From positions 1 through 64,000 of IMG/VR virus record IMGVR_UViG_3300021067_000001: a stretch of 64,000 nt of DNA; one strand, 5' to 3'. The notes under the pieces were generated by a model. The model searched no databases and had not been told where the DNA came from. It saw only the letters and a list, made by a program, of their open reading frames with translations. The DNA comes from a virus. The position numbers and the translations under genes are program-made. Shown here piece after piece: positions 27,040 to 52,519 of this stretch (positions within the stretch are counted from its first letter, which is position 1; every line of letters begins with the position of its first letter).

Positions 27040-27062
27040 AAAACCAAAATAGGAGGAAGAAA

Positions 27063-27458: not shown

Positions 27459-27492
27459 GGGATCTGTGAACGGCTTTCGCAATTTTGTTGTC

Positions 27493-27612
27493 ATGGCAAT
27501 TCTTTGCATTCTATTAGTTTTCATTCTGAATGCTGCGGGATGCCAATTCAATCCGGTGCCAGATTGCAATCCTCTGGAAGAGGGCTGCGAATGGCGTCCA
27601 TTCGAAGGGTGA
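27493..27612 (+). CDS. 39-aa putative lipoprotein
   Basis: MAILCILLVFILNAAGCQFNPVPDCNPLEEGCEWRPFEG with lipobox LNAAGC. Alternative GTG start at 27466. Confidence 0.45.
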   Translation: MAILCILLVFILNAAGCQFNPVPDCNPLEEGCEWRPFEG

Positions 27613-27619
27613 CCTTGAA

Positions 27620-27886: not shown

Positions 27887-27982
27887 CTCGCGAGAGGAGG
27901 TGATCGCTGTGGAATTCGATAACCACTGGCGTGACCGCGATCTTTGCTGATAAACGTCGTCTGTGTCGGGGCAGACGACTAA

Positions 27983-28055
27983 GCCTCATTAGCTCAGTGG
28001 ATAGAGCAGCAGCCTTCTAAGCTGCGAGTCGCTGGTTCGAATCCAGCATGGGGCA
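27983..28055 (+). tRNA. tRNA-Arg (anticodon UCU)
   Basis: Full cloverleaf. Acceptor GCCTCAT/ATGGGGC, D arm GCTC-AGTGGATA-GAGC, anticodon arm GCAGC-CTTCTAA-GCTGC, 5-nt variable loop, T arm GCTGG-TTCGAAT-CCAGC, discriminator A. Confidence 0.85.
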
Positions 28056-28086
28056 CGCCAACAATGGCAGATTTAAGGGAGCCAGC

Positions 28087-28377
28087 ATGGGCAATGATTT
28101 CGGACTCGACAGGAAGCGGCGAACGATTCTCAGCGTGGTAGCTGTGATCGCTCTTGGCGGCACCCTGGGTGCATGTACCAGTTACGCCAAGGGCGAGATC
28201 ATCGAAGTGGAGCAGGACCAGGGTGAAAACGGCGCCGTTTTGGAGCTGGAGGTGGTGCGAGATGCTTACGAGGGCACCGGCGCACCGAACAGCTACGAAG
28301 CGGACATCCCTGATGTGCCGGCGAACAATGGTTGCAAGGTTGGCGCAATTTATCCCGACTGCGTCGGCCAGAGGTAA
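28087..28377 (+). CDS. putative lipoprotein
   Basis: ATG 28087 (the track start 28048 would overlap the tRNA). ...ILSVVAVIALGGTLGACTSY lipobox. Confidence 0.6.
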   Translation: MGNDFGLDRKRRTILSVVAVIALGGTLGACTSYAKGEIIEVEQDQGENGAVLELEVVRDAYEGTGAPNSYEADIPDVPANNGCKVGAIYPDCVGQR

Positions 28378-28382
28378 CATCT

Positions 28383-28414
28383 GAAAGGGGCCGGTTTCAA
28401 CCCCGGCCCCTTTC
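28383..28414 (+). terminator. terminator-like hairpin
   Basis: GAAAGGGGCCGG-tttcaacc-CCGGCCCCTTTC gives a 12-bp perfect stem. Confidence 0.6.
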
Positions 28415-28428
28415 GATTGGAGAATTAG

Positions 28429-28707
28429 ATGGACGAGTTCCACAGCAAGTTTAATCCGACAGAACGCGCACATCGCGCGCAGATGCTGCAGATCATATAT
28501 GCTCTCAGCACGGAGCTGAAAAGCGAGCTGAGACATAAGATAAATTTCTTTGCGCATGCCAAGAAGCTTGGTTGGCTGCCAAAGTCCATTCGCATCAAAA
28601 AGCAGGCCTTGCCGTTTCTTGTTGCAGAGGCAACAGAGGGCTTTGGTTATAAACCTGGAACAACTGTCAAGCAAGCCTTGGCGATTTGCAAGAGGGAGGA
28701 GACGTGA
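28429..28707 (+). CDS. hypothetical protein
   Basis: 92-aa ORF with GGAGAA upstream. Confidence 0.5.
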   Translation: MDEFHSKFNPTERAHRAQMLQIIYALSTELKSELRHKINFFAHAKKLGWLPKSIRIKKQALPFLVAEATEGFGYKPGTTVKQALAICKREET

Positions 28708-28886
28708 TGGGCACGCGTGAGGCATTGCAGATGGCCTTGCAATTTCTGAGCGCAGCTTCTTTGACAACAGGAGCAGATGACGCTGCGCAGACCATCAGGA
28801 TGCTACTGGACCAGCGCGGCTGCGGCGAGATTCCTCCGGGCGACCAGACGCTGACCGACGCCATCGACATGGCGGTTTTCGGCTGA
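28707..28886 (+). CDS. hypothetical protein
   Basis: TGATG coupling with AGGGAGGAG RBS (the track start TTG 28686 is less likely). Confidence 0.5.
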   Translation: MGTREALQMALQFLSAASLTTGADDAAQTIRMLLDQRGCGEIPPGDQTLTDAIDMAVFG

Positions 28887-28896: not shown

Positions 28897-29163
28897 GTGA
28901 CATCGAATGATGAATCCAGGCAATTAGAAGTTAAGGTTTCTGCACTGGAATTGCAGATTCGCGATTTGCAATCTGCGCTGAAAGCGCAGGAGGATGCCTT
29001 TTGTGATCTGGCAAAAAATCTTGAAAGGATGCAGATAAATTTCGCAAATTTTCTGCAGAGCAATTACACCCCATTCGTGATTGCTTTCAATCAGCATGGG
29101 CATCAAGCACCCACAACGGTTGGGTATATGCCCACTAGCAGACCTATCAAGGTCGATGGCTAG
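28897..29163 (+). CDS. hypothetical coiled-coil protein
   Basis: GTG start with GAGGAGAAAAG RBS; 88 aa. Confidence 0.5.
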   Translation: MTSNDESRQLEVKVSALELQIRDLQSALKAQEDAFCDLAKNLERMQINFANFLQSNYTPFVIAFNQHGHQAPTTVGYMPTSRPIKVDG

Positions 29164-30067
29164 CATCAGATGCGCGCACTGCAAGAATACGCACAATTCC
29201 GTGCAGGAAGTGCGGGAGTGCGCGCAAGGAGTTGTCAGCCGTGCTCGCTGGGACTTATACTGGAAAGCTCACGAGGACATCTGGGGCGAGGATGATCACC
29301 CTGATGACGAACACACGCCCGAACGTCAAGAAGACTTCCAAAATTGGTTGACAAAGGTCCTGTCGAACCCCGATTTCTTTATCGCGCCAGGGGCTACGGA
29401 TGCAGATCGGAGAAAAGCTCATCTCGCCGTCAAGCCAGGCACCCTTCAGTCTCGCATGGAGGAGATGCGCCGCGAGATTGAGGGGCCACTGTTCTGCGGC
29501 CACATCGACAAGGCGGGCGACCTGTGCGCAGAGTCTCTTGAATTGACTGCGGATAACGAGCCCACGCACGAGGACAGATTAATCAACCTGGAACACAATC
29601 CACTTGCGGTCTCGCATGGTCAGCTCGACAGACTCCGCGCGGGGGAGTTTGTGAATGGCGCACAGCTGCAGAAGACGCAAGAGCGTCGGCAGCAGCGTAT
29701 GGAGCCAGTTGCCGAAGGATGGTATAAAGTCGGGGAAACCATCTACAAAGTGCAGCGCGCCGTGCATGGGAGCGGTAATCTGTATGCCAAAGAACTGGTT
29801 GTGGAGCCGCTAGCAAAAGAAGAGTTCACTCCGGCTCAATTTGCTTGGCTTGAGCGTGAACCAGAAAAACTTTTCCATCAGGCCAGGTGGGAATATGTTC
29901 CTGGTGCTATTCGTCAGATTCGTGGTGAACACAAGCTCTCCATTGAGGAGTGTCTGCAGTTCGGGAAACTCTATGGAGTGTGCGTTCGCTGTGCGCGAAC
30001 GTTAACCAAGGAAGAGAGCATTGCGCGAGGCATGGGCGATGTCTGCGCAGGGAAAGGGCTGATATAA
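29156..30067 (+). CDS. hypothetical protein with N-terminal CxxC and C-terminal CxxC...GMGDVC motif (DUF6011-like, from memory)
   Basis: ATGGCTAG overlap start. IRCAHCKNTHNSVQEVREC ... GVCVRCARTLTKEESIARGMGDVCAGK. Confidence 0.6.
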   Translation: MASIRCAHCKNTHNSVQEVRECAQGVVSRARWDLYWKAHEDIWGEDDHPDDEHTPERQEDFQNWLTKVLSNPDFFIAPGATDADRRKAHLAVKPGTLQSRMEEMRREIEGPLFCGHIDKAGDLCAESLELTADNEPTHEDRLINLEHNPLAVSHGQLDRLRAGEFVNGAQLQKTQERRQQRMEPVAEGWYKVGETIYKVQRAVHGSGNLYAKELVVEPLAKEEFTPAQFAWLEREPEKLFHQARWEYVPGAIRQIRGEHKLSIEECLQFGKLYGVCVRCARTLTKEESIARGMGDVCAGKGLI

Positions 30068-31207: not shown

Positions 31208-31212
31208 AATGG

Positions 31213-31301
31213 ATCGCTGTGACCACGGCATGGGGTCAGTTGGTCTGGAGCACCAAGCAGAATGGAGTTTGGTGTGGTTGGTTCGAATCCAACCAGCGAG
31301 C
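31213..31301 (+). tRNA. possible type II tRNA (Ser-like, anticodon GGA) with irregular geometry
   Basis: T arm GTTGG-TTCGAAT-CCAAC. Acceptor ATCGCTG/CAGCGAG with a 1:72 mismatch. D arm GACC...GGTC. Anticodon arm TTGGT-CTGGAGC-ACCAA. 20-nt variable region. Linker lengths are atypical. Confidence 0.4.
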
Positions 31302-31327
31302 GCATTAACACTACTCAGGAGGTAGTC

Positions 31328-31732
31328 ATGAGCAATTTTGAAAACGGTTGGAACATCGAAACTTCCGGGAATCCGAATTGGGATCGGCAATTCGATGCTA
31401 CAGATGCTAGATTGAATGTGCTTCTGCAGCGCGACTTCGAGGTCGTGCGGGATTCACTCAAGAAGCGTGCTGCAGAAGCGTTTGCCAAGGCGCACGAGGA
31501 GTGGACGGCGGAGCAAGAGCAGCTGGCCGGCAAGTACATTTGGATCCGTGCGGAGCAGATTGATGGTCGTACCACGATCTGTGAACAGGGTCACGGGCGC
31601 AAGATCATGCGGTATCGAGTCACCGAGATCCACCCTGCGCGGAGCCGTTTTGACCGCAAGGTTGTGGTAACAGTCGACAAGACAAGGCGCTGGGTTTACG
31701 ATCCCAAGGACCTTGTGATGGTGCTGGCGTGA
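31328..31732 (+). CDS. hypothetical protein
   Basis: ATG 31328 with CAGGAGG RBS (the track start 31262 would overlap the tRNA-like element). Confidence 0.6.
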   Translation: MSNFENGWNIETSGNPNWDRQFDATDARLNVLLQRDFEVVRDSLKKRAAEAFAKAHEEWTAEQEQLAGKYIWIRAEQIDGRTTICEQGHGRKIMRYRVTEIHPARSRFDRKVVVTVDKTRRWVYDPKDLVMVLA

Positions 31733-40258: not shown

Positions 40259-40939
40259 TTGCCTAATATCAAGTTCAAGGTTGGCGCTGATGCCAAGGAC
40301 GCCAAACCGTCCCAGGTTGGCTATGTTGGCTCTCGACCTCCCAAGGGCGTTTATCGAGTTTTGGTGAAGCGCCTGACTCTCACCATCAACAAGAACGGCG
40401 ACTACATGTTGAACGCGGTTCTTGAGATCAATGAACCTGAGAGTTCGCCCAAGGCGCGTTACAACAAGTACGGCTTCTGGTGGAATGGTAACGTCACCGA
40501 CGAAGGGGCTGGCTATATCAACCAGTTCCTTGACGCTATCAGCAACGGTAAGAGCGCGGTGAAGGACGCATTCTATGCGGGTAAACTGCGCACCTTTGAA
40601 GCTCCCAAGAAGGGGCACAAGGCTGCGGTAATGGCAATCGGCCCGCTGCGAATTCAGCAGGAGGGTATGCCCGCTATCGTCAATACCCGACTTGGCAAGC
40701 CCTACAACGGCGAGACGAACCTGGCTGTTGCTGATTGGCTGCTTCCGAGTCAGCTGGAAGAGCTTGAAGCTTCTGGATCACTTGATGGCGATGACGATGT
40801 CGCCGAAGATGATGTTGAGGTTGACATCGATGAGTCCGCTGACGGTGAGTCTGCTGACGGTGCTGCTGATGACGATGTTGCTGATGACGACAGCATCGAG
40901 TACACCGAGGAGGATGAAGACAATGAACCTCCCTTCTGA
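40259..40939 (+). CDS. putative ssDNA-binding protein with acidic C-terminal tail
   Basis: TTG start. Follows the Sak4-like ATPase. The C-terminus ...DDSIEYTEEDEDNEPPF resembles the SSB acidic tip (DDDIPF type). Confidence 0.5.
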   Translation: MPNIKFKVGADAKDAKPSQVGYVGSRPPKGVYRVLVKRLTLTINKNGDYMLNAVLEINEPESSPKARYNKYGFWWNGNVTDEGAGYINQFLDAISNGKSAVKDAFYAGKLRTFEAPKKGHKAAVMAIGPLRIQQEGMPAIVNTRLGKPYNGETNLAVADWLLPSQLEELEASGSLDGDDDVAEDDVEVDIDESADGESADGAADDDVADDDSIEYTEEDEDNEPPF

Positions 40940-41218: not shown

Positions 41219-41800
41219 ATGCAGACATTCCTTCCCTATATTGGGTGGAACAAGTCGTTGCAATGTCTGGATAATTTACGGCTCTCCAAACAGCGCGTTG
41301 AGGCAAAGCAGATTCTCATGATTTTGGCTGGCGAGAGTCAGGGATATCAACACCATCCGGCCATTCAAATGTGGCGAGGCTATGAGCGTGCGCTTTGTAT
41401 GTATGGCGCAGCGGCTTGCTATCAATGGAGAATAGTTAGAAATCGAAATTGCGACATGTGGCCTTGGTTCCCCGCCCGGGACAAGGCGTATGCTGATGGT
41501 ATTATGCCATGGGCTGCAGAACCGCAAATTGCTGCCGTGCCCCCTTGGGTAACAGATGCATGGCTTATGCGATCACACCGAAGTAATTTGATTCGCAAGA
41601 ATGCGGAGCATTACGGACCGCTGTTTCCGAATACGCCAGAGAATATGCCATACCTTTGGCCGGTTAATGACCCGGAAGAGACCAAGGGATATCGCTTGCT
41701 AGTTAGCATGGCCGATTATGGTAGAATTTGTCGTGGTGAACGAGTTATCCCATCTGGGCTTAGTTTTGATGAAATTAATCGGAATGTGACGGTGCGATGA
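41219..41800 (+). CDS. endonuclease V / pyrimidine-dimer glycosylase (Pyr_excise)-like protein (tentative)
   Basis: MQTFLPYIGW..SLQCLDNLRLSKQRVEAKQIL...GYQHHPAIQMWRGY resembles that superfamily from memory. ATG 41219 with AAGGA RBS. Confidence 0.45.
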   Translation: MQTFLPYIGWNKSLQCLDNLRLSKQRVEAKQILMILAGESQGYQHHPAIQMWRGYERALCMYGAAACYQWRIVRNRNCDMWPWFPARDKAYADGIMPWAAEPQIAAVPPWVTDAWLMRSHRSNLIRKNAEHYGPLFPNTPENMPYLWPVNDPEETKGYRLLVSMADYGRICRGERVIPSGLSFDEINRNVTVR

Positions 41801-42618
41801 GGGTCGCCATTTTCGGGTCTGGACCAAGCGGATTGCTTGCTGCACACGCTCTGGTTGTTTATGGTCACGCCGAGGTTTGGGATATTGATATATTTTCCAG
41901 AGGCGAGAAATCACCTCTTTATGGATGCCAGTATCTGCACCAGCCAATTCCTGCCATTAATTGCGGTGAGGACGTAACTGTCAAATACAATTTGATTGGC
42001 TCGCCGGAGCTTTATTACCGCAAGGTGTATGGATCCAAGCGCGTTACGGCTGTTAGTCCTGAAGAGTATGGTGGCGAACATCAAGCCTGGGACATTCGCA
42101 AGCTTTACGACCAGCTTTGGGATGCCTGGCAGCCTCGTGTAAAAGTTGCGATGGTTGATAAGCCAAATCCAGATGAATTTTGGGATATTTTTGCGCCAAC
42201 ATACGACAAGATTATCAGCACAATTCCTCGGAATAATTGGTGCTACAATGAAAAGCACAATTTTGAGGTGACTGAAATCTATGCGGTTGGCGATGCACCG
42301 GATCTCGGCGTTCGAGCGCCATTCCGACCAGCATTCGATAATGCGGTGATTTGCAATAGTGATCCTCATGTTGGCTGGTACCGAATGTCCCAAGTCTTCG
42401 GGTTTAGCACAATTGAATGGCCCGGGGATCGAAAGCCGCCTGTTGGTCGAGTAGCGCATGTCAAAAAGCCACTGCGAACTGATTGTAATTGCTGGACAGA
42501 GCACGAAGATGACGTTAGCTGGGGCGAGAGCATTTTGTTCGTCGGCCGATATGGCGAATGGAGGAAGGGTGTGCTTGCCCATGACGTCTTCTACCAAGTT
42601 AGAGATGCTTTCGCGTAA
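41797..42618 (+). CDS. Rossmann-fold FAD/NAD(P)-binding protein
   Basis: N-terminal MRVAIFGSGPSGLLAAHAL (GxGxxG). The C-terminal FVGRYGEWRKGVL recalls the tails of UDP-galactopyranose mutase / amine oxidase-type flavoenzymes. 273 aa. Confidence 0.6.
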   Translation: MRVAIFGSGPSGLLAAHALVVYGHAEVWDIDIFSRGEKSPLYGCQYLHQPIPAINCGEDVTVKYNLIGSPELYYRKVYGSKRVTAVSPEEYGGEHQAWDIRKLYDQLWDAWQPRVKVAMVDKPNPDEFWDIFAPTYDKIISTIPRNNWCYNEKHNFEVTEIYAVGDAPDLGVRAPFRPAFDNAVICNSDPHVGWYRMSQVFGFSTIEWPGDRKPPVGRVAHVKKPLRTDCNCWTEHEDDVSWGESILFVGRYGEWRKGVLAHDVFYQVRDAFA

Positions 42619-43255
42619 ACCCTGGGTTGGCATTGATATTGACGGTACCCTCGGCGATTATCACCGGCACTTCTTAATGTGCGCAGAAATGTTTTTGCAA
42701 CGGCCCATGCCAAAGCCAGAAGAAATCAACCCGTTGATGCCATTGCATAAATTCATCGGTGTAGACAAGCGCAAATATCGAGAAATCAAAATGGCATATC
42801 GGCAGGGTCGCTGGAAGCGATCTATGCCAGTCTTCCCGTACGCACGCCAGATGACCCTTGACCTTCGCCGCGCGGGGATATGTATAAGCATTTGTACGAC
42901 TCGACCATTCAATCAACTTGGCGAAGTTGATGCGGACACAAGATGGTGGCTCCGCCATCATGGAATTCAACACGACCTTCTCATTTGGGGGCCGCATAAG
43001 TATCGAGACCTGACAAGAGCTGCGGGAAAGAACAACATCGTTGCTGTAATTGATGATGAATTAGAGCAAATGGAGCGATGTTTCCGGATTGGCATTCCGT
43101 TCTATTTGCGTAATCAGCCGTATAACCAAACTCATCAATTGATAGCTCCACATCGGGGCTTGCGACATTCCAGCATTCGAGTGATTAGCCTGGAAGAAGC
43201 AACAAACCGAATTCTCAAAGATTTGGAAGGATGGAAAAGTGGACAACCCATTTGA
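42581..43255 (+). CDS. HAD-superfamily phosphatase (5'-nucleotidase-like)
   Basis: Motif I WVGIDIDGTLGD (DxDxT). Motif-IV-like AVIDDE. The start is uncertain (ATG 42581 or 42605; the track ORF opens at 42458). Confidence 0.65.
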   Translation: MTSSTKLEMLSRKPWVGIDIDGTLGDYHRHFLMCAEMFLQRPMPKPEEINPLMPLHKFIGVDKRKYREIKMAYRQGRWKRSMPVFPYARQMTLDLRRAGICISICTTRPFNQLGEVDADTRWWLRHHGIQHDLLIWGPHKYRDLTRAAGKNNIVAVIDDELEQMERCFRIGIPFYLRNQPYNQTHQLIAPHRGLRHSSIRVISLEEATNRILKDLEGWKSGQPI

Positions 43256-43652
43256 TAAAGATGCGCCGTTGATGGCGAAAACAAAAGATGGACAAAAGTG
43301 GGTTACTTATACGCTGGGTTTGGGTAGTGACAAGCCCCTTACGTGCACTGCATGGGATATCTTCTTGGGCGCAGGAGAGCCCAACGATTTGGGTGATTCT
43401 CTTTTGCAGGAATTCATGGAACGTTTCATGGAAAAACAGAGAGATTACGGCGACGCTGCCGATGATCTTGGTGCCCCAGGGCAGTATGCCGAAATTCACC
43501 GCAAGAAGGCAAAGCTCAAGAAGGCTTTGTGGGAAGGCGAGAAGCTGGTGGGTGAACCGGTTGATGAGGTTTTGATGGACCTTATTGGACACTGTTTCCT
43601 GGCGCTCCGGCATGTCAGACAAACCAACTACGGCGGGAGATTCAAGAAGTGA
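43239..43652 (+). CDS. DUF1599/Nmad1-like all-alpha (MazG-like) protein
   Basis: MEKQRDYGDAADDLG...EPVDEVLMDLIGHCFLAL fits my recollection of the DUF1599 (nucleotide-modification-associated domain 1) pattern. Confidence 0.55.
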   Translation: MDNPFDKDAPLMAKTKDGQKWVTYTLGLGSDKPLTCTAWDIFLGAGEPNDLGDSLLQEFMERFMEKQRDYGDAADDLGAPGQYAEIHRKKAKLKKALWEGEKLVGEPVDEVLMDLIGHCFLALRHVRQTNYGGRFKK

Positions 43653-43816
43653 GTGCCGAAGACGTCGCTTGGGATCTCAGCAACTTCCTCACCGAGAATC
43701 CTGATTATCGTTATCCTGGTTCGCCCTTGATGAGCACCGAGCTTGACGGAGCTTATGTCTTTGATATAACGCAAGAAGAAACCACCTACATCGTAACCGT
43801 GCAGGAGAAGCAGTGA
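43649..43816 (+). CDS. 55-aa hypothetical protein
   Basis: GTGA coupling at both ends. VSAEDVAWDLSNFLTENPDYRYPGSPLMSTELDGAYVFDITQEETTYIVTVQEKQ. Confidence 0.45.
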   Translation: MSAEDVAWDLSNFLTENPDYRYPGSPLMSTELDGAYVFDITQEETTYIVTVQEKQ

Positions 43817-44466
43817 ATTCGGAAAACATCGCAGATGCCGTAGATGAGATTGAAAGTGGGCGGTATTCTACTGTGTATAAAGCTGGCGACGGTGACAGTC
43901 CGCTGGCTTTTGCTGAATTTGGCCTAGACCGTATTCTCCCTGAATGGGTTATTCCAGATTGGGATTTCCCCGTCCTTGATCTTGGCCCAGGAAGTAAGCT
44001 GGTGCCCGGTGCTGTCCGATTGGACTGGCCAGAGTATGATTGGGAGTCGGAGTACACAAATGAATATGTGCATGATGGCAAAGGGTCCGTGCATCCCCGT
44101 GCAGTTCTCAGGCTCAAAAATAGCGGAAAGCTGCCGTACGAGGACAACTCTGTAGGCGGCATCTTCTGCGTGAACCTTTTGGAGCATCTGTGGGACCCTC
44201 GTCCGTTGATTTGGGAGATGGCGCGCGTTTTGCGACCTGGCTGTCCTATCAACGTATTCGTCCCACACGCAGATAGCATCATGTACAAGCAAGATTTGGA
44301 CCACAAGAAGCCATTCGTACTTGATACCTGGCGCAATCTGCTTGATCCGCACCCCTATTATGAGAAGGGGCATCAACCAACACACGGTTTGCGTCGAGGT
44401 GTTGAATTCAAGTTTGCAGTGAAGGAAGGAAATGAGGCATGTATCGCCCAGCTGATCAAGAACTGA
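43813..44466 (+). CDS. class I SAM-dependent methyltransferase
   Basis: Motif I VLDLGPGSK. Motif-II-like GGIFCVNLLEHL. 217 aa. Confidence 0.7.
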   Translation: MNSENIADAVDEIESGRYSTVYKAGDGDSPLAFAEFGLDRILPEWVIPDWDFPVLDLGPGSKLVPGAVRLDWPEYDWESEYTNEYVHDGKGSVHPRAVLRLKNSGKLPYEDNSVGGIFCVNLLEHLWDPRPLIWEMARVLRPGCPINVFVPHADSIMYKQDLDHKKPFVLDTWRNLLDPHPYYEKGHQPTHGLRRGVEFKFAVKEGNEACIAQLIKN

Positions 44467-44663
44467 AGCAAGCTGTTGAAGCCTTTCGCAAGGTCATGGA
44501 AAATTCAGCTCCTCTTTTCAGAGTCGTGGCAGAACAGTTCAAGATGGCAGCACAAAATCTTACACTGGCTCTTCAGGTATTTGGTGCAGAACTGAACAAA
44601 TCCATGGAGGAATGGTCGAATAATGATGGGGATGATGAGGAGAATACGGAAACAAGAAAGTGA
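44439..44663 (+). CDS. hypothetical helical protein
   Basis: 74-aa ORF overlapping the methyltransferase 3' end. Confidence 0.45.
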   Translation: MYRPADQELKQAVEAFRKVMENSAPLFRVVAEQFKMAAQNLTLALQVFGAELNKSMEEWSNNDGDDEENTETRK

Positions 44664-44818
44664 AAGAAGAAACAATTTCGACAATTATTTGTACTTGTCC
44701 TGCCAATGCGCCTGATTGGCCAGATGAACGTGAACATCTGCAGCAGGATGATTGTTTGTGTCAAGGTTGTGGCGAGCCCTTGAATGAAGGTCCACACGGA
44801 GGGAATATCTGCACATGA
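44660..44818 (+). CDS. 52-aa Cys-rich protein
   Basis: GTGA and ATGA coupling. VKEETISTIICTCPANAPDWPDEREHLQQDDCLCQGCGEPLNEGPHGGNICT. Confidence 0.45.
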   Translation: MKEETISTIICTCPANAPDWPDEREHLQQDDCLCQGCGEPLNEGPHGGNICT

Positions 44819-45582
44819 GTGTTTGGATTGTAGGTGGGACTAGCGGAATTGGCAAGGCCATCCATTCCAAGCTTCTGAGTGAAAATGATTCAGGATTTCT
44901 CTTTGTAACGGGCGAAGAAGTTGACGTAACGGATTCATCAGCGCTAGAGAACCAGCTGGTGCATATCAGCGACGCGACAACGGGTGAGATTGAGGACCCT
45001 CTGCGCACAGTGTATTTTTGTGCTGGGATCAACTACCTTGAGTGGTTGGGCAAGATGGGGGAACGCGGTCGGATCAACGCGCAAGAAGTAATTGACGTAA
45101 ATTTGATGGGATTCATTAATCTCATGGACGTTCTCGTCAAGGCATCTAGCGAGGATTTGCTTACCCCTCCAGAGTGGATTCGACCTAGAGTTGACGTAGT
45201 TGTCATCACCTCGGATGCAGCCGAACGCCCCATGCGAACATCTACGGCTTACTGCGCCTCAAAGGCCGGTCTCAACATGGCGATTCGTTGTGCTGCTAGA
45301 GAGCTTGGGCCAATCGGCTGGCGCGTATTCGGCATCGCTCCAGGGATGATCGAAGATACAAATAATTATCCCAGCAAGATGACACAGTATGTTGATGAAC
45401 GAGTATCCGAGGTTCGTGGATGGACTCGCGAGGAAGCTGGAGCATATGAGGCGCAGCAATCGGTTATTCGCAATCCATTGCGTATTCATCCGATGGACAT
45501 TGCCAATTTCGCGGTCAGTCTCGCTGACAGCGATACCGAGCATTTGAACGGAAACATCTTCACTGTGAATGGTGGTCGCTAA
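44815..45582 (+). CDS. short-chain dehydrogenase/reductase (SDR)
   Basis: VWIVGGTSGIGKAI (TGxxxGxG-type) and YCASKAGLNM (YxxxK). Confidence 0.75.
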   Translation: MSVWIVGGTSGIGKAIHSKLLSENDSGFLFVTGEEVDVTDSSALENQLVHISDATTGEIEDPLRTVYFCAGINYLEWLGKMGERGRINAQEVIDVNLMGFINLMDVLVKASSEDLLTPPEWIRPRVDVVVITSDAAERPMRTSTAYCASKAGLNMAIRCAARELGPIGWRVFGIAPGMIEDTNNYPSKMTQYVDERVSEVRGWTREEAGAYEAQQSVIRNPLRIHPMDIANFAVSLADSDTEHLNGNIFTVNGGR

Positions 45583-45752
45583 TGGAACTTCCGAAATTCA
45601 ATGCCTATCTCCTCCAAGAGGAGGCTAGGCACAACAAGGATCAACAGGCTTGGCCGCAGGTTTACATGCGAGCTGAAGGGGGCGAACCGCTGGAAGTCAA
45701 GTCAATCACTTTCGATGCCGTTCATAACCGAATCATCCTAGGAGCGTCATGA
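45582..45752 (+). CDS. 56-aa hypothetical protein
   Basis: TAATG and ATGA coupling. MELPKFNAYLLQEEARHNKDQQAWPQVYMRAEGGEPLEVKSITFDAVHNRIILGAS. Confidence 0.45.
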   Translation: MELPKFNAYLLQEEARHNKDQQAWPQVYMRAEGGEPLEVKSITFDAVHNRIILGAS

Positions 45753-45937
45753 CTCCAGAATACCACGTCGAAATTGCAGCAGAAATGCTGAAATCGATCG
45801 GAAGTAAGGACCAAATTCTCAAGCGTATCGGTCACGAAACAGATATCGCTTTGGCGACTGCGGCCTCAGCACATCTCAAGATGGCCGAGCTCAAGCTCAC
45901 TTGCCCGGAACTTTTCCTGAAAATGGAGTCTGCATAA
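45749..45937 (+). CDS. hypothetical protein
   Basis: 62-aa coupled ORF. Confidence 0.5.
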   Translation: MTPEYHVEIAAEMLKSIGSKDQILKRIGHETDIALATAASAHLKMAELKLTCPELFLKMESA

Positions 45938-45938
45938 C

Positions 45939-48900
45939 ATGAAGTACGTTTCCCTGCACCATCATTCTACATTCAGTTACATGGATGGGTATGGGATGCC
46001 AGATGCGCACCATGCCCGCGCGGCAGAGCTTGGCATGTCCGCTTTGGCATTGACGGAGCACGGAAACGTATCGAGCCATGTTAAGCACGAGCAGGCAGGT
46101 GCCAAGTATGGCGTCAAGCCAATATACGGATGCGAACTATATACCGCATCAGAAAGGACAAGATCAAAGTGGCACCTGACCTGCATCGCAGAGACGCAAG
46201 AGGGCTATCAGAATCTGAACCAGCTGGTGAGCAAAGCTTGGGCAGAAGGCTTCTACCAGTGGCCGACGGTCTTTGGGTACATGCTCAACGAACATCGTCA
46301 AGGCCTGATTCTGACCTCTGGCTGCGCCGATTCGCTCCTCAGCTGCACGCTGATGGGCGGCAAGAGCAACGGCCCGAAGCGGGAGACGATCACCAGCCAG
46401 GATCTGGACAATGCGGAGAAGGTGATCCGCAAGTTCCAGGAGGTGATGGGGAAGGACAACTACTTTCTGGAAGTTCAGCAGTTCCCTGGGCTTGCCCGCA
46501 CCTGCACACTAAATCCTGCGTTTGCGGAGTTGAGTATGCGGACAGGTGCGCCTTTGGTGGCCACATCTGACTGCCACTACCCTCTCCCGACTGATAATGA
46601 GATGCAGAAGATTCTACATGCGGCTGGACGTGGAACTGGGACGGTTGCGGCGGCTGAGGCGGGATGGGAATATGACATCCTGCTGACGCCGCCGACCTCG
46701 GACAAGGCCATTTATGAGAACTTGCGAGGAACCGGTCTAACCCGATTGCAGGCGCTTGAAGCAATTGATAACACAGCACTTATTGCATCTAGGTGTAACG
46801 TTCTTCTGCCAAAGAATGAATTGCTTCGCTTTCCATTGCCACAAGGCTTTGATACGCCAAAGGATTTGATTTGGCAGAAGTTGCGAGAAGGCTGGACGTA
46901 CCGCTGGGCACGTAATCCGCATATGCGCGCCAACAAAAAAATGTACGTTGAAAAGCTCAACTATGAGATGTCTGTGGTTGAACAGAAGGATGGATATCTG
47001 GACTACTTCTTGATGGTTTCAGATGCTGTCATTTTCGCTAAGGATTCAGGCATCGCTGTCGGCCCCGCGCGGGGGTCTGCGGCAGCTAGCTTGATTCTGT
47101 ATTTGTTGCGGGTAACCGAGGTTGACCCGTGTCAATTTCCCACAATGGTTTTCGAGAGGTTCATTGATGTTGCGCGTACAGATATGCCGGACATCGACCT
47201 CGACTTTGCTGATGACCGGCGAGATGAAGTCAGGCAACACCTCGTGCGAATTTACGGCAACGATCGAGTCGCAAACATTGGTAACTTTGTCCGATATCGG
47301 GGCAAGAATTCGATCGTTGACGTCGCACGCGTTTACACGATTCCAAAGTATGCGGCGGACCAGGTCAAAGACCTCATCATCGAACGGTCGGGCGGTGACT
47401 CGCGAATCAACGACAGTCTCGCAGACACCTTCGCGACCTTTGATGTTGCTCGCAAAATCTTAGATCAATTCCCTGATCTGAGCCGAGCAATTCAGCTCGA
47501 AGGCAATATGCGCGGCATGTCAGTGCACGCTGCAGGATTGGTTATTAGCAACCGCCCGATCACGGATACCTGTGCGATGTATACCAGAACTGTTGCTGGC
47601 GAGAGCAAGTCAGTTCTTGCATATGACAAAAAGGATGCCGAATACCTCGGCATGCTGAAGATGGACTTCCTTGGGCTTGCCGAGATGTCGGCGATTGACA
47701 TCGCGCTTCGTATGGTCGGTATGACACTTGATGAGCTTTACCAGGTTCCGCTAGACGATGCCGAGACTATCCAAGGCTTCCGGGAGACCGACGTCGTCGG
47801 CATTTTCCAATTCAAGGGCCGAGCCACCCGTCTGATTTGTCAGGATGTGGTACCCGATCATTTCATGCATCTTGCGGATATTAACGCTCTGGCTCGACCA
47901 GGGCCGCTGTTCTCCGGGATGACAGCACAGTATGTCGAGGTGAAGCACGGGCGAGCTGAGCCAGACCATTTGCATCCGCTAGTTTGGAAGTACACGCAGC
48001 ACACGTACGGACAAATCATCTACCAAGAGCAAGTGCTCAACATCATCCGTGAGATTGGCGGCTTCCCGGTTGCCAAGATTGGTGATATTCGCAAGATCAT
48101 TTCGCAGAAGCTTGGCGAGGCTTCATTCAATGCAATGAAAGAAACCTTCGTTGATGGAGCGAAGCGGCTGCACAATATTGATGCAGATTTGGCTGATCGC
48201 ATTTGGAAATTCATGGTGACATCAGCCACCTACTCATTCAACGTTGCGCACTGCATTAGCTACTCTATGCTGGCATTCTGGTCTATGTACCTGAAGCGCA
48301 AGCATCCGCTAGCATTTTATTCCGCATCGCTTCGCAAGACTTCCAAAGAAAATTGGCCCAAGCTACTCCGGGATGCCCGAAAGAAGAACATTGAAATTCT
48401 TCCGCCTAGCATGACGGAATCGGATTACAGTTGGTCTCCAGACCCAAGCGGCCACGCCGTCCGCGCGGGATTTGTACAGGTTGATGGCGTTGGCGATATC
48501 ACTGCAAAGAAGATTATCGATGCTCGTGCAGCCGACCCTCTCGGATACACTGAGTGGTCAGATCTGATGAAAATCTCAGGGATCGGGCCAAAGAAGATGG
48601 AGCGAATTCGTGAGTTTTGCGAATCCGATGATCCTTTCAATTTGGATCTTGTGGGTAAGACTCTGGGTATCTATCGGGAGGCCCTGGAGGCTGGAGAAGG
48701 TGATTGGGCTGGTCTACCTGTCCCTTCTCATACATCTGATGAGATTCCTCGCGATGCCATAAATCTGCCAGTAATCTGGATTGGCATTGTTGCCAAGAAG
48801 GAATACAAAGATCTCATTGAGGATGAAAGAGCGCGATCTGGCGATACCGTTGAAGAGATTTTGGCAAGGGTTAAGGACCCGGATTTGCGAAAATCTTGTA

Positions 48901-49106
48901 CTCTCAAGTGTTATGATGATGGTGATGAAGATGTGTATCTGCGTATCAATAGATGGGCATTCCCAGATTTCAAAGAGGCCATCGAAACGGTAAATTGTGA
49001 CAAGGACATTATCATCGTCCGTGGTTTCAAAAAGGGCGGATTTGGCGTCTCGCTGCACATCAAAGATATGATCGTGATCAACCCAGATGAGGATGAAGAT
49101 GATTGA
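45939..49106 (+). CDS. dnaE: DNA polymerase III alpha subunit (DnaE-type)
   Basis: 1055 aa. PHP-domain start VSLHHHSTFSYMDGYG. Pol III alpha core motifs (GPARGSAAASLILY, MPDIDLDF, LKMDFLGL). Confidence 0.9.
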   Translation: MKYVSLHHHSTFSYMDGYGMPDAHHARAAELGMSALALTEHGNVSSHVKHEQAGAKYGVKPIYGCELYTASERTRSKWHLTCIAETQEGYQNLNQLVSKAWAEGFYQWPTVFGYMLNEHRQGLILTSGCADSLLSCTLMGGKSNGPKRETITSQDLDNAEKVIRKFQEVMGKDNYFLEVQQFPGLARTCTLNPAFAELSMRTGAPLVATSDCHYPLPTDNEMQKILHAAGRGTGTVAAAEAGWEYDILLTPPTSDKAIYENLRGTGLTRLQALEAIDNTALIASRCNVLLPKNELLRFPLPQGFDTPKDLIWQKLREGWTYRWARNPHMRANKKMYVEKLNYEMSVVEQKDGYLDYFLMVSDAVIFAKDSGIAVGPARGSAAASLILYLLRVTEVDPCQFPTMVFERFIDVARTDMPDIDLDFADDRRDEVRQHLVRIYGNDRVANIGNFVRYRGKNSIVDVARVYTIPKYAADQVKDLIIERSGGDSRINDSLADTFATFDVARKILDQFPDLSRAIQLEGNMRGMSVHAAGLVISNRPITDTCAMYTRTVAGESKSVLAYDKKDAEYLGMLKMDFLGLAEMSAIDIALRMVGMTLDELYQVPLDDAETIQGFRETDVVGIFQFKGRATRLICQDVVPDHFMHLADINALARPGPLFSGMTAQYVEVKHGRAEPDHLHPLVWKYTQHTYGQIIYQEQVLNIIREIGGFPVAKIGDIRKIISQKLGEASFNAMKETFVDGAKRLHNIDADLADRIWKFMVTSATYSFNVAHCISYSMLAFWSMYLKRKHPLAFYSASLRKTSKENWPKLLRDARKKNIEILPPSMTESDYSWSPDPSGHAVRAGFVQVDGVGDITAKKIIDARAADPLGYTEWSDLMKISGIGPKKMERIREFCESDDPFNLDLVGKTLGIYREALEAGEGDWAGLPVPSHTSDEIPRDAINLPVIWIGIVAKKEYKDLIEDERARSGDTVEEILARVKDPDLRKSCTLKCYDDGDEDVYLRINRWAFPDFKEAIETVNCDKDIIIVRGFKKGGFGVSLHIKDMIVINPDEDEDD

Positions 49107-51139: not shown

Positions 51140-51383
51140 CAAATCATATGTCAATGCAAATGAATTGGGGCAACTTCGGGTGACTACTTTTCCCAATGAA
51201 GATGAATTGCGAATTCGCGCGATAGTCTGCATTCATCGGAATCTTGGGGCAAGTAAGGATATGCTTGAAATTGCAGAAATGCTAGGTTTGATCGATGGCA
51301 ATGCCGAGTACATCAAGGCTGATGAGGTTATGGGTCACACGAATAACCCGCATCGCCGAGGCATAGGGAATTGGATTGACTGA
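51129..51383 (+). CDS. hypothetical protein
   Basis: 84-aa coupled ORF. Confidence 0.45.
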   Translation: MMVDKSYVNANELGQLRVTTFPNEDELRIRAIVCIHRNLGASKDMLEIAEMLGLIDGNAEYIKADEVMGHTNNPHRRGIGNWID

Positions 51384-52519
51384 TGATCAGAGAATGTACT
51401 TGCGATAACCTCGCCTACCCATGTGACATCCACGACACAGAAAGTCCCGATGTAGTGCGCCCTGGTAATTCTATCCAGAAGTGGTCTGATGAGGCTATGT
51501 TCACAGCGGAGCCTAGCGATGCCACGAACGGACCGCGCGTCTACCTCTTGGCAGCACCGGCAGACCCGCTAGGGGCCGTAGCGGCGGCTGCAAAGATGTA
51601 CAAGGGCGAGGTCGTTCGGGATCTCGCGACAGTCACCGATGCGGATCGACGCTATTATCTGGGCGAGATGAAGAAGACCAAGTTGAAGATGCCGCTGGAG
51701 GCGGTGCAGCTGCATTTTCTCCTTGATGGCGTAACCCGCGCGTTCACCCATCAGCTTGTGCGTCAGCGAACCGCTGCATATGCGCAGGAATCCATGCGCT
51801 TTGCCGTGATTGAAGACAGCTTTGTGAATCGCGTAGCATTGCCCCCATCACTGGCTGGTACGCGTAGCTGGTCTGAGCGTGTATCGCAGACTATGGATGA
51901 CCTGCCTAATTCAACCTATGACCAGGCTGCGGATGCAACCGACCGTGCCTCAACCAAGCAAGAGCGTTGGCGCAGACGTTGGGATGAAGTTCTGGATGTA
52001 ATTCAGGAGAATTACAAGATTCTGGTGGATGCCGGCATGCCCGCCGAAGACGCGCGGGGATTGTTGCCAACTAACATAACCACCCGAGTGCACTACATCA
52101 CCAATCTTCGCTCGCTTCTGGACCATGCCGGGAACCGACTCTGCACACAGGCCCAGTTTGAGTGGCGCCAGGTTTTCGCGCAGATTTCGCAGGTGCTGCG
52201 TAATTACGAGCCTGTGTATTCCAGAACCTGGACATCTGGCCCCAACAATGAATGCGTCTCGCTCCAACACGGTTGCCGAGGCAATTGGCAGTATTTCGAG
52301 TTGTCACAGCTGCTACAGCCCGCTTGCTACCAAGTCGGCAAATGCGTGTTCGGCGCAGAATTTGACCGAAAGTGCAGTATTCGCAATCGAGTACAGATGT
52401 ACGCATCCGCTGGAGTTTCTAGCGATAGATGGGGTGATGGCTGCCAGGTGACCAAGGAATTTTCAATTGCGCCTATTTTCCCGGCTGAGTGGTTGTTGGA
52501 TCCAGGAGCTGCGCGATGA
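51383..52519 (+). CDS. thyX: ThyX-family (flavin-dependent thymidylate synthase-like) protein with variant motif and Cys-rich C-terminal extension
   Basis: FTHQLVRQRTAAYAQESMRF aligns to the ThyX motif RHRxxSxxxxSxRY but reads RQRxxA. ARGLLPTNITT...NLRSLLDH...RLCTQAQFEWRQV matches the second ThyX block. Confidence 0.7.
   Translation: MIRECTCDNLAYPCDIHDTESPDVVRPGNSIQKWSDEAMFTAEPSDATNGPRVYLLAAPADPLGAVAAAAKMYKGEVVRDLATVTDADRRYYLGEMKKTKLKMPLEAVQLHFLLDGVTRAFTHQLVRQRTAAYAQESMRFAVIEDSFVNRVALPPSLAGTRSWSERVSQTMDDLPNSTYDQAADATDRASTKQERWRRRWDEVLDVIQENYKILVDAGMPAEDARGLLPTNITTRVHYITNLRSLLDHAGNRLCTQAQFEWRQVFAQISQVLRNYEPVYSRTWTSGPNNECVSLQHGCRGNWQYFELSQLLQPACYQVGKCVFGAEFDRKCSIRNRVQMYASAGVSSDRWGDGCQVTKEFSIAPIFPAEWLLDPGAAR

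Follow-up and report, generated by a model that had tools for sequence, protein, structure and literature searches.

The genes at positions 41219-45582 of the analyzed window, a 64,000-nt stretch of the viral record IMGVR_UViG_3300021067_000001 (all positions are in window numbering), form a single translationally coupled early operon, which we interpret tentatively (probability about 0.45) as a conserved, thymidylate-centred accessory module that belongs to the DnaE replication cassette of a large group of virulent actinophage-type siphoviruses and acts at the nucleotide level, before replication. The module core is a phage-only FAD flavoprotein (OxR), a predicted deoxynucleoside-monophosphate phosphatase of the NT5C type and an Nmad1-like protein, often accompanied by an SDR; the methyltransferase, a Pyr_excise-like protein and the micro-ORFs are additions in this lineage.

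The locus comprises six enzyme-like genes and three interleaved micro-ORFs, one of them Cys-rich, as described in the earlier note; all are transcribed rightwards (+ strand) with overlapping stops and starts, and lead into a gene for a DnaE-type DNA polymerase III alpha subunit (45939-49106, +; Pfam PHP, DNA_pol3_alpha and finger domains, read from an identical contig gene). All junctions from 41219 through DnaE are either overlaps of 1-50 nt or spacings of 1 nt, and promoter- or terminator-like sites are no more frequent than in shuffled sequence. The cluster had been placed directly upstream of DnaE, and the coupling is as reported, with two additional micro-ORFs of 56 and 62 aa (45582-45752 and 45749-45937, both +) preceding the polymerase gene. 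The locus genes are real, as their exact proteins are found again on at least four metagenomic contigs and the full gene order is kept in relatives with 68% and 53% OxR identity.

OxR (41797-42618, +; 273 aa, motif FGSGPSG) anchors the module and belongs to a new phage-only family. Its AlphaFold2 model (pLDDT 94.4, pTM 0.90) indicates a minimal two-domain FAD-binding flavoprotein with a GR2 / D-amino-acid-oxidase-like fold, and Foldseek matches it in the PDB to D-amino-acid oxidase (DAAO), UDP-galactopyranose mutase (UGM), MHPCO, VioD and renalase at E values of 3e-8 or weaker and TM scores of only 0.4-0.56, with no close solved structure. With fold matches this generic (TM no higher than 0.56), oxidase, monooxygenase, mutase and reductase chemistries are all possible. 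Sequence searches of the PDB return nothing past the GxGxxG motif, and Pfam has no family for OxR, a match being seen just at the N-terminal GxGxxG region in 61 members; OxR does match phrog_8720 (3e-85), which is of unknown function. A profile search yields 994 clusters (50% identity, E<1e-10), all stand-alone proteins of ~250-330 aa. OxR occurs almost exclusively in this module context, and the family is essentially missing from cellular genomes, with just two matches among 185,579 species genomes.

The HAD phosphatase gene (42569/42605-43255, +; motif DIDGT) probably starts at the ATG at 42605, and its 5' part overlaps the 3' end of OxR. The window protein has no Pfam match of its own and matches phrog_415 (3e-18), and 25 of 37 orthologues match Pfam NT5C (best 4e-12); the DxDGT, TTRP, K and DD motifs are invariant in all 37. 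By family membership it is predicted to be an NT5C-type 5'(3')-deoxyribonucleotidase, a refinement of the earlier protein identifications, which are upheld. The adjacent Nmad1/DUF1599-like gene (43239-43652, +) encodes a helical protein that scores 16.7 bits (0.009) against Pfam DUF1599, under the cut-off of 25, the domain being matched by 7 of 36 orthologues (best 1.6e-6). The AF2 model (pLDDT 84.5) has an N-terminal beta-hairpin and a long helical hairpin with conserved acidic residues, and D69, D75, E85, E106, E110 and D114 are invariant among the orthologues. Foldseek returns nothing significant (best E 0.6), the list being headed by MazG, HisE, DR2231, YpjD and DCTPP1; from these non-significant fold matches and the resemblance in motif, we predict that this is probably an all-alpha NTP-pyrophosphohydrolase-like nucleotide-binding protein. 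In unrelated archaeal viruses Nmad1 lies in a dUTPase-ThyX-Nmad1 block, interpreted there as thymidylate synthesis.

Co-occurrence across phages, proposed earlier as a check on the cluster, is pronounced. Among ~160 related viral loci and cultured actinophages, OxR, HAD and Nmad1 (often with the SDR) constitute a conserved block beside DnaE; the gene set is not a chance assembly. Cultured phages from five actinobacterial genera carry the block, among them the mycobacteriophages PLot and PBI1, whose OxR proteins are gp61 and gp58, and phages of Gordonia, Microbacterium and Streptomyces. HAD accompanies 79 and Nmad1 51 of 85 OxR loci identified by tblastn, and among 45 OxR loci with full flanks DnaE, the invariable downstream neighbour, is present in 45, Nmad1 in 38, HAD in 37 and the SDR in 29. 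Wherever both genes are called (54/54 loci), HAD is found no more than 1.5 kb downstream of OxR, and in 34 of 48 loci the Nmad1 start is at most 100 nt away from the HAD stop. The genes stay together through 24 distinct gene orders, and OxR-HAD-Nmad1 adjacency persists at 37-45% protein identity, from phages of Mycobacterium to those of Streptomyces and Microbacterium, although these loci all stem from a single broad phage lineage and the co-occurrence is thus partly inherited rather than independently selected. The combination had not been recognised as a described pathway; it is itself recorded in SEA-PHAGES clusters D, DG, DV, EF, AE and BN (oxidoreductase, phosphatase, methyltransferase, FabG-like reductase and ThyX-like genes), but without a pathway assignment.

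The gene most tightly linked to OxR lies outside 41219-45582, ~6 kb downstream, and encodes a divergent 378-aa ThyX-like flavin-dependent thymidylate synthase (51383-52519, +; 86.4 bits against TIGR02170, just below the cut-off of 87.9). Of 55 ThyX-anchored loci, 52 have OxR in the 10 kb upstream. ThyX is within 10 kb in 32 of the 45 full-flank OxR-anchored loci; in the other 13 it is not seen and may lie past the 10-kb flank. Eight of 103 loci have it within the OxR block, and in several loci the two are direct neighbours. The dUMP-binding residues (Q75, R78, R80, S88, R90, R147 and R174; 30 clade sequences) are common to canonical ThyX and this clade, whereas H53, H79 and H178 (T. maritima numbering), which we take to be the histidines lining the cofactor site in canonical ThyX, are replaced in 30/30 clade members. 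The roles of these T. maritima histidines were reportedly described by Koehn and colleagues in 2012. The ThyX-like protein also has Cys-containing extensions, and its clade has extra conserved cysteines. Neighboring genes in the window and relatives belong to pyrimidine-deoxynucleotide metabolism and encode dCMP deaminase, DUF4406 and ThyX, as well as a dCTP-deaminase-like protein, UDG and DUF6378.

Two genes that had been read as pathway parts, the methyltransferase and the glycosylase-like gene, are lineage-specific add-ons and not core members. The latter (41219-41800, +) matches the pyrimidine-dimer DNA glycosylase domain Pfam PF03013 (Pyr_excise; 58 bits, cut-off 23, 1e-15, residues 1-71) and, over its full length, the MSMEG_6728 family NF038085 of NCBIfam (139.7 bits, cut-off 100); about 13 of 80 related loci carry it, always immediately 5' of OxR. 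Its glycosylase-type catalytic Glu, at the T4-endoV-type position, is not conserved among phage orthologues although this protein has it, and the family profile does not find endonuclease V in the PDB. The methyltransferase (43813-44466, +; motif VLDLGPG) is carried by 7-13 of ~80 loci, and by cluster D mycobacteriophages. It matches Methyltransf_11 (33 bits, cut-off 21, 8e-8) and phrog_6636 (2e-47), its closest PDB sequences are small-molecule O- and N-methyltransferases, and it is predicted to be a class I SAM-dependent enzyme of small-molecule type. The SDR (44815-45582, +; motifs GGTSGIG and YCASK) is a classical FabG-like member that matches adh_short (69.5 bits, cut-off 26.6, 4e-19) with the TGxxxGxG motif and Ser-Tyr-Lys triad intact, and 3-hydroxyacyl-CoA dehydrogenase and FabG among PDB sequences. 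It is a frequent module member of mobile position, located either after HAD/Nmad1 or right after DnaE.

Micro-ORF conservation was assessed against the relative at 68% OxR identity, in which the enzymes share 66-74% identity with those here. The 52-aa Cys-rich micro-ORF (44660-44818, +; CxC ... CxCxxCG ... C) is 84% identical over 43 aa, exceeding the flanking enzymes, and adjoins the SDR start in that relative as well; it matches nothing in Pfam or PHROG, and its cysteine pattern points to a small protein that probably binds metal and whose translation is coupled to that of the SDR. The 74-aa helical micro-ORF (44439-44663, +) has a counterpart at the equivalent position (42% identity, full length), the two micro-ORFs preceding DnaE are 43% and 36% identical, and none of these three has a family match above cut-off. 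The 55-aa micro-ORF (43649-43816, +), with no Pfam or PHROG match, is missing from this relative, the 53% relative having an ORF of similar size in that slot, and is either dubious as a gene or specific to the strain.

The earlier proposal that these proteins act jointly on nucleotides is supported by the co-occurrence and adjacency of OxR, HAD and Nmad1 (and SDR), by the deoxynucleotidase type of the HAD protein, and by the archaeal Nmad1 genes alongside dUTPase and ThyX; its extension to DNA hypermodification is not, and the strongest link, that to the ThyX-like gene, had been overlooked. In concert with the ThyX-like enzyme and the nearby dCMP/dCTP deaminases, the module probably acts on free pyrimidine deoxynucleotides prior to replication. 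Gene identities, coupling, co-occurrence and ThyX divergence are observed, and we infer all substrates and the direction of flux: Nmad1 would bind a dUTP/dCTP-type triphosphate or hydrolyse it to the monophosphate, the ThyX-like enzyme would methylate dUMP, and HAD would rid the pool of a dNMP that is unwanted or a by-product. OxR, with its DAAO/glycine-oxidase-like two-domain fold, may be a dedicated redox partner of the ThyX-like enzyme that lacks the cofactor-site histidines, contributing either a one-carbon unit from amine oxidation or a flavin redox step, and the SDR and methyltransferase could tailor or regenerate a small-molecule substrate. Free formaldehyde is usable directly by ThyX (PMC8316439). 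A 5'-nucleotidase opposes net dTMP supply unless it is selective, which counts against the module reading.

It is unlikely, on balance, that the locus encodes a novel pathway for modifying DNA bases before or after replication, in which the ThyX-like enzyme would make a 5-substituted dUMP other than dTMP, OxR, SDR and methyltransferase would tailor the substituent, and Nmad1 and the NT5C-type phosphatase would exclude canonical dNTP/dNMP, as in base-replacing phages. The ThyX-like clade, with its retained dUMP site, altered histidines and added cysteines, fits such a scheme, as does the Pfam label of DUF1599, 'nucleotide modification associated', and the NTP-pyrophosphatase-like protein and dNMP phosphatase resemble the classical exclusion pair of NTP pyrophosphatase and dNMP phosphatase (PBS2, SPO1, T4). 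Known thymidine-hypermodification loci have FAD oxidoreductases beside the DNA polymerase gene, and OxR shares its size and two-domain GR2 architecture with NGTO (PaMx11 gp47), a 286-aa FAD oxidase able to flip a hypermodified thymine out of dsDNA, but by hhalign (probability 7-10%) the two have only the dinucleotide-binding motif in common. The hallmark enzymes are absent from the scanned ORFs, which contain no thymidylate-synthase-type hydroxymethylase, 5-hmdU DNA kinase, aGPT-Pplase, DpdA/TGT, glycosyltransferase, TET/JBP, DNA-type methyltransferase or dNMP kinase, and most family members have no methyltransferase. A gene of the UDG superfamily and dCMP/dCTP deaminases, expected with ordinary T-containing DNA, are found in many relatives, and a literature search on these phage clusters found no reports of modified DNA.

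Somewhat more doubtful is that the genes are independent housekeeping-type auxiliaries with no shared pathway (a UV-repair glycosylase, a nucleotidase, a MazG-like pool sanitiser, and a generic reductase, oxidase and methyltransferase) held together by block inheritance of the early replication region. Every family is individually common in phages, the methyltransferase, Pyr_excise-like gene, SDR and micro-ORFs are variably present, and the synteny could reflect descent because the related loci all fall in a single broad lineage that shares Cas4-like, AAA_24, DnaE and primase genes; against this stand the adjacency through rearranged gene orders and low protein identity, the movement of ThyX into the block in some lineages, and the near confinement of OxR to the module. 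An anti-defence role, with a chain-terminating or cyclic host antiviral or signalling nucleotide degraded by pyrophosphohydrolysis, dephosphorylation and oxidation, would suit the order of the predicted activities, the confinement of the OxR family to virulent phages and the occurrence of Nmad-type domains in predicted bacterial defence systems. It is nonetheless improbable, as the module sits in the conserved replication core by DnaE and ThyX rather than a variable accessory region, co-varies with thymidylate synthase and not host range, and shows no similarity in Pfam or PHROG to known anti-defence nucleases or sponges. Nucleotide-sugar or cell-envelope chemistry, raised earlier as an alternative with OxR as a UGM-like enzyme and the SDR and methyltransferase tailoring a sugar, is highly improbable: UGMs are among the best OxR fold matches and the SDR and Methyltransf_11 families are frequent in sugar tailoring, but UGM is ~100 residues longer (TM ~0.5) with DAAO matching equally well, nucleotidyltransferase, glycosyltransferase, epimerase and dehydratase are all absent, OxR is partnered by a deoxynucleotidase and a ThyX-associated domain, and the hosts range from Mycobacterium to Streptomyces and Microbacterium, genera whose cell envelopes differ widely.

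Given that OxR is almost always accompanied by a deoxynucleotide phosphatase and an atypical thymidylate synthase, the nucleotide-level module is the reading we prefer, and the operon most likely reshapes the building blocks of DNA.

The window covers most of a metagenomic siphovirus genome of ~66.7 kb with a G+C content of ~50%. OxR, the predicted FAD flavoprotein of the operon (41797-42618; 273 aa), is encoded with exactly the same sequence on ena:ERZ27257325:k141_711483 (66,686 bp) and on further contigs. From 41219 to 45937 the plus strand is occupied by ORFs packed stop-on-start, followed by the gene for a 1055-aa DnaE (45939-49106). The run opens with a Pyr_excise-like gene (gene 1; 41219-41800; 193 aa), after which come OxR with its Rossmann motif, a HAD phosphatase (HAD; start at 42569 or 42605, end at 43255), a DUF1599-like gene (Nmad1; 43239-43652; 137 aa), the 55-aa micro-ORF m55, a SAM methyltransferase (43813-44466; 217 aa), the micro-ORFs m74 (74 aa) and m52 (52 aa), an SDR (44815-45582; 255 aa), and two more small ORFs before DnaE. 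Promoter-like and terminator-like sites within the run are at chance level, being no commoner than in shuffled sequence. A MazG-like gene, a dCMP deaminase, a DUF4406 gene and a ThyX-type gene (51383-52519, plus strand) lie downstream of DnaE. The earlier note described the genes at 41219-45582 accurately, and each ORF lies where it was placed.

The micro-ORF m52 (44660-44818, plus strand) is Cys-rich, with the pattern CxC ... CxCxxCG ... C, and is 84% identical in a relative whose adjoining enzymes reach just 66-74%; in both phages it abuts the start of the SDR. It has no family match; a small metal-binding protein that partners the SDR or its neighbours is its probable identity.

Elsewhere in the window, the stretch at ~23500-28800 has a strong AT skew and a G+C content of up to 0.61 (~0.50 in the rest of the window), and includes a tRNA-Arg(TCT) gene (27983-28056) together with the window's only long minus-strand ORFs (24537-25817, 26940-27569 and 27994-28767), the first of which (426 aa) has no Pfam match. 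It appears to be a foreign or divergently transcribed segment that separates the lysis/structural from the early genes. A 328-aa protein (29081-30067, plus strand) carries a DUF6011 domain (1e-12) at its C-terminal end and a CxxC pair at its N-terminal end, and the ORF called at 31262-31732 probably has a miscalled start, since a tRNA-Ser(GGA) gene (31212-31303, plus strand) overlaps it. Between an AAA_24 ATPase gene and the operon is a gene for a conserved 226-aa protein (40259-40939, plus strand), present in ~57 of 80 relatives. A PHROG labelled 'methyltransferase' matches this protein best (3e-22), a label that looks unreliable; the protein has no Pfam match and no SAM motif was seen, and its position and acidic tail suggest an SSB-like protein.

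There is no nucleotide similarity between this phage and known phages by megablast, and sensitive blastn matched only ~190 bp of the methyltransferase gene. At the protein level, the OxR homologues in GenBank phages (37-45% identity) are all encoded by actinophages, with hosts in Gordonia (46), Microbacterium (36), Mycobacterium (32), Streptomyces (9), Arthrobacter (2) and Nocardia (1). IMG/VR gave no match to the back-translated OxR protein alone, and homologues were retrieved with an alignment as query instead; 80 loci around them were fetched, and their ORFs called and clustered. The arrangement that recurs is Cas4-like nuclease - AAA_24 ATPase - g226 (the 226-aa protein) - ... - (Pyr_excise-like) - OxR - HAD - Nmad1 - (SDR) - ... 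- DnaE - (SDR) - ThyX, and the entire gene order is kept in relatives at 68% and 53% OxR identity.

Among 85 loci searched by tblastn, 79 contain HAD and 51 contain Nmad1. In the ORF-based survey, the 45 loci with full flanks contain DnaE (45), Nmad1 (38), HAD (37), ThyX (32), SDR (29), the Pyr_excise-like gene (8) and the methyltransferase (5); the HAD counts differ between the two surveys because some overlapping genes escaped the ORF caller. The distance between OxR and HAD is no more than 1.5 kb in all 54 loci compared, and Nmad1 starts no more than 100 nt from the HAD stop in 34 of 48. These counts and adjacencies define OxR-HAD-Nmad1 as the core, which the SDR often joins; this sub-lineage has added the methyltransferase, the glycosylase-like gene and the micro-ORFs. 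The earlier note had proposed checking co-occurrence across phages, and OxR, HAD and Nmad1 are indeed kept together in the related viral loci and in cultured actinophages; the module is co-inherited and co-localised. Because the related loci form one broad phage lineage, the counts overstate independent support, a bias that the diversity of arrangements and hosts offsets only in part.

Genes for a UDG-superfamily protein, a dCTP-deaminase-like protein and DUF6378 also recur nearby in the relatives. Five loci (L012, L024, L028, L035 and L042) have a gene for an Asn-synthase-like PP-loop ATPase (~330 aa, SGGVDS) between OxR and HAD, which is a further candidate pathway member; the window is without this gene. 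In ~29 related loci (e.g. L054:7499-8428) an upstream ORF of ~300 aa encodes the N-terminal PHP part of DnaE separately, and the DnaE gene is therefore split or interrupted in these relatives; in the window one ORF encodes all 1055 aa of DnaE.

OxR has no Pfam family, and across 61 members only the N-terminal dinucleotide-binding motif matches anything; PDB sequence searches likewise found nothing past this motif. Invariant positions of the family include G7, G9 and G12 of the N-terminal motif as well as Y46, H48, W194, Y195, R196, K224, R251 and K257, and the region close to the C terminus has a GRYGxWxKG loop. An AlphaFold model built from a deep alignment (pLDDT 94.4, pTM 0.90) has a minimal two-domain FAD fold, and OxR is predicted to bind FAD. 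Foldseek matches this model to D-amino-acid oxidase, UDP-galactopyranose mutase, MHPCO, VioD, renalase and flavin halogenases with a probability of 1.0 each, at TM-scores of just 0.4-0.56 and with the matched proteins ~100 residues longer; in the viral structure library only OxR's own family is close. The GxGxxG motif, the two-domain fold and the C-terminal G-rich loop are those of GR2 / D-amino-acid-oxidase-type flavoproteins. OxR does not fall into a specific enzyme family within this class (DAAO, UGM, PHBH or renalase), with TM-scores of 0.56 or less and Pfam matching the N-terminal motif only. A UDP-galactopyranose mutase was rejected because of the size of OxR and because partner genes are missing among the ORFs scanned, and a thioredoxin-reductase-like enzyme because no cysteine is conserved in the family.

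A profile search with OxR gives 994 clusters (50% identity) at E<1e-10, all of stand-alone proteins of ~250-330 aa. In this search of 1.84 billion representatives, only the OxR family itself was among the best 150 matches listed, which therefore offer no bridge from OxR to an annotated family. A GTDB scan of 185,579 species genomes yielded two matches, both on MAG contigs and with no cellular context, and the family is almost confined to viruses. One of the two is a homologue with 39% identity on CAZPLH010000002.1 (L088), a 34-kb contig assigned to a Saccharibacteria MAG; the contig is most likely phage DNA that was binned with the MAG, but could hint at a host outside the Actinobacteria.

The wyrdviruses of Asgard archaea contain a dUTPase-ThyX-Nmad1 (DUF1599) block, read by its authors as thymidylate supply, and a second IMG/VR scan was therefore anchored on the ThyX-type gene. 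The block resembles the operon described here in that Nmad1 is tied to a flavin-dependent thymidylate synthase and to enzymes processing pyrimidine dNTPs, although it is without the flavoprotein, HAD phosphatase, SDR and methyltransferase, and the viruses and their hosts are unrelated. OxR is present in 52 of the 55 ThyX-anchored loci with at least 9 kb of upstream sequence, and in the three exceptions the sequence ends just short of the expected OxR position. The 103 loci include 24 gene orders, and in 8 of these loci ThyX is upstream of DnaE and adjoins OxR, HAD or SDR.

The ThyX-like protein of the window matches PF02511, and scores 86.4 bits against TIGR02170, just under the cut-off of 87.9. 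Most clade members are 296-422 aa long. The ThyX-like enzyme exceeds canonical ThyX by ~100-150 aa; the PDB chain of the T. maritima enzyme has 232 residues. In an alignment to the T. maritima enzyme all 30 ThyX-like proteins keep the nucleotide-site residues Q75, R78, R80, S88, R90, R147 and R174; in the same 30, H53 is replaced by L/I, the His of the RHR signature by Q/S/T, H178 by Q/M, and E86 by Q. H53 of ThyX reportedly stacks on the folate, with H79 and H178 contacting the FAD. RHR is a conserved ThyX motif (PMC6514825); in the clade, the arginines and serine of the RHR-x7-S signature are invariant and its histidine is replaced. There are extra conserved cysteines at C254, C315 and C331. 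ThyX is able to use free formaldehyde instead of methylene-tetrahydrofolate (PMC8316439).

HAD motifs I-IV (DxDxT, T/S, K, DD) are invariant across 37 orthologues, 25 of which match the NT5C 5'(3')-deoxyribonucleotidase family (PF06941; best 4e-12); the window HAD has no such match at E <=0.1, and a PDB sequence search found no solved relatives. The window Nmad1 scores 16.7 bits against DUF1599 (PF07659), below the Pfam gathering threshold of 25, and 7 of 36 orthologues match this family, the best at 1.6e-6. The Nmad1 proteins share the pattern K-x2-DYG...G-x2-G...RK...LK...W...E-x3-E-x3-D and have six invariant acidic residues on helices, and the AlphaFold model (pLDDT 84.5) has a beta-hairpin followed by a long helical hairpin. 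MazG, HisE, DR2231, YpjD and DCTPP1 head its Foldseek list, none of them significant (best E 0.6); hhalign comparisons with DUF6378, phage MazG-like and window MazG families are not significant either, and a PDB sequence search found nothing. In L019-L022 and L015 the slot after HAD is filled by a DUF6378 protein (Pfam 9e-23), whose motif pattern, K-x-x-YG ... LK ... W ... D-x-x-GY, resembles that of Nmad1 (hhalign not significant); this suggests that DUF6378 may be a functional replacement of Nmad1 in these loci.

The remaining enzymes are of more familiar types. The Pyr_excise-like protein is a full-length member of the NCBIfam MSMEG_6728 family (NF038085; 139.7 bits, cut-off 100), and its N-terminal 71 residues match Pyr_excise (PF03013; 58.3 bits, cut-off 23; 1e-15). 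The Glu of its QRVEAKQ sequence is at the expected catalytic place, which we take to be that of Glu23 in T4 endonuclease V. Since this column is not conserved in 13 phage orthologues and the family profile retrieved no endonuclease V structure from the PDB, a glycosylase activity is uncertain. The methyltransferase matches Methyltransf_11 (33.2 bits, cut-off 21.2) and has motif I (VLDLGxG); its closest solved relatives by PDB sequence search are small-molecule methyltransferases, and it has no match to DNA methyltransferase families. The SDR (adh_short, 69.5 bits, cut-off 26.6; 58 PDB SDR sequence matches) is of the classical type, and its GGTSGIG cofactor motif and S...YCASK catalytic residues are intact.

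The same gene string can be recognised in cultured actinophages. Clusters D, DG, DV, EF, AE and BN contain the string oxidoreductase - phosphatase - (methyltransferase) - FabG-like reductase - DnaE - ThyX-like, for example in mycobacteriophages PLot, PBI1 and Erk16, Gordonia phage Xenia2 and Streptomyces phage Yara (oxidoreductase - phosphatase - ... - DnaE - ... - ThyX-like). A genome announcement notes the same phamilies in all six clusters and proposes no function. The genes are orthologous to those of the window phage and in the same order and genomic position; HAD, Nmad1, methyltransferase, SDR, DnaE and ThyX are 45-57% identical to those of Erk16, and OxR is 37-45% identical to its orthologues in the cluster phages. 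The window phage differs in having the MSMEG_6728/Pyr_excise-like gene and the conserved Cys-rich micro-ORF, and it has no nucleotide-level similarity to these phages. Their annotations are generic and assign no pathway; none is given for the Nmad1 orthologue, and the label of HAD is in some cases 'exonuclease'. The Cluster D phage Erk16 (L001) reads oxidoreductase - "exonuclease" - methyltransferase - gp64 - gp65 - DnaE - ... - ThyX-like, and some of its annotations look at odds with homology: gp62, the 'exonuclease', is the orthologue of the NT5C-type HAD phosphatase, and gp64 and gp65, both annotated as hypothetical proteins, are those of Nmad1 and the SDR.

Also comparable are the sets with which classical phages condition the nucleotide pool, and house-cleaning enzyme pairs, in which a MazG-superfamily all-alpha dCTPase/dUTPase is combined with a 5'-deoxynucleotidase such as NT5C. 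As in these sets, a triphosphate pyrophosphohydrolase-like protein and an NT5C-type dNMP phosphatase are encoded near a thymidylate synthase and deaminases. They are, however, without a flavoprotein, and the fold match between Nmad1 and MazG-type enzymes is not statistically significant.

Given its co-inheritance, and the tie of OxR to a dUMP-binding ThyX-like enzyme, we interpret the cluster as a nucleotide module centred on thymidylate and acting before replication; its identifiable members would act on free deoxynucleotides, and we infer all of the substrates. OxR would serve the ThyX-like enzyme as a redox partner or as a source of one-carbon units, and Nmad1 would be a triphosphate-processing protein, HAD a selective dNMP phosphatase, and the SDR and methyltransferase tailoring or regenerating enzymes. 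OxR and the histidine-less ThyX-like enzyme may further constitute a two-flavoenzyme system with a non-canonical role, to which we give roughly one chance in five, and which could follow either of two routes. In one, thymidylate synthesis would be folate-independent, with the one-carbon unit generated by the oxidase; in the other, a non-canonical 5-substituted deoxyuridylate would be made and would end in virion DNA, while the NT5C-type phosphatase and Nmad1 would remove the canonical nucleotide that competes with it.

A new modification route using the altered ThyX-like enzyme, with its substituted cofactor-site residues, is a less likely rival to the nucleotide module. The literature searched on DUF1599/Nmad1, MSMEG_6728, the FabG-like/oxidoreductase/phosphatase combination and actinophage DNA modification offers annotations only. 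Against a known hypermodification pathway, the ORFs scanned contain neither its hallmark enzymes nor the partner genes of PaMx11 gp47. Among the window ORFs scanned there is no ThyA-family dUMP hydroxymethylase (the only thymidylate-synthase-like gene being of the ThyX type), no DpdA/TGT transglycosylase or preQ0 synthesis gene of the 7-deazaguanine route, and no glycosyltransferase, TET/JBP or DNA methyltransferase; Pfam, PHROGs and NCBIfam searches of the operon and the other replication-region ORFs revealed no 5-hmdU DNA kinase and no aGPT-Pplase / amino-acid:DNA transferase. The earlier note had seen in these genes the kinds of parts that DNA hypermodification pathways use, a reading that is supported in part: the genes form a co-localised module that would act on nucleotides, and no recognised pathway of that kind was found among the ORFs scanned.

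The closest parallel on the hypermodification side is PaMx11 gp47 (NGTO), the FAD-dependent N-alpha-glycinylthymidine oxidase of the 5-NmdU thymidine hypermodification pathway, a 286-aa GR2 FAD oxidase that flips the hypermodified thymine out of DNA. Like OxR it is a phage-encoded, stand-alone, minimal two-domain GR2 flavoprotein of the same fold class and size, with FAD-binding loops at similar positions, and its gene is in a replication region with thymidylate-synthase-family and DNA polymerase genes. Sequence similarity is nevertheless not significant outside the GxGxxG motif: hhalign aligns the N-terminal motif alone (probability 7-10%), and neither hhalign nor MAFFT indicates a specific relationship. 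Structures of gp47 are in the PDB and are not among the top 50 fold matches of OxR. The PaMx11 partners, aGPT-Pplase gp46, acetyltransferase gp48 and a ThyA-family enzyme, have no counterparts among the window ORFs scanned, and whereas NGTO acts on DNA, the partners of OxR point to free nucleotides.

Nucleotide-metabolism modules are already known in phages, and this gene string has already been annotated generically in cultured actinophages. This one centres on the OxR family, with ~1,000 clusters at 50% identity and no Pfam model or close solved relative, which is locked to a thymidylate-synthase clade with a diverged cofactor site. The module can be tested directly, as orthologues are present in the easily grown and tractable M. 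smegmatis phages PLot, PBI1 and Adjutor. The two-flavoenzyme system, if true, would amount to a new nucleotide pathway shared by hundreds of actinophage lineages, cultured mycobacteriophages included. The chemistry of the module would show how widespread phages of Actinobacteria, those of Mycobacterium among them, make or alter a DNA precursor, and could reveal either new flavin chemistry on nucleotides or a novel modification of DNA.
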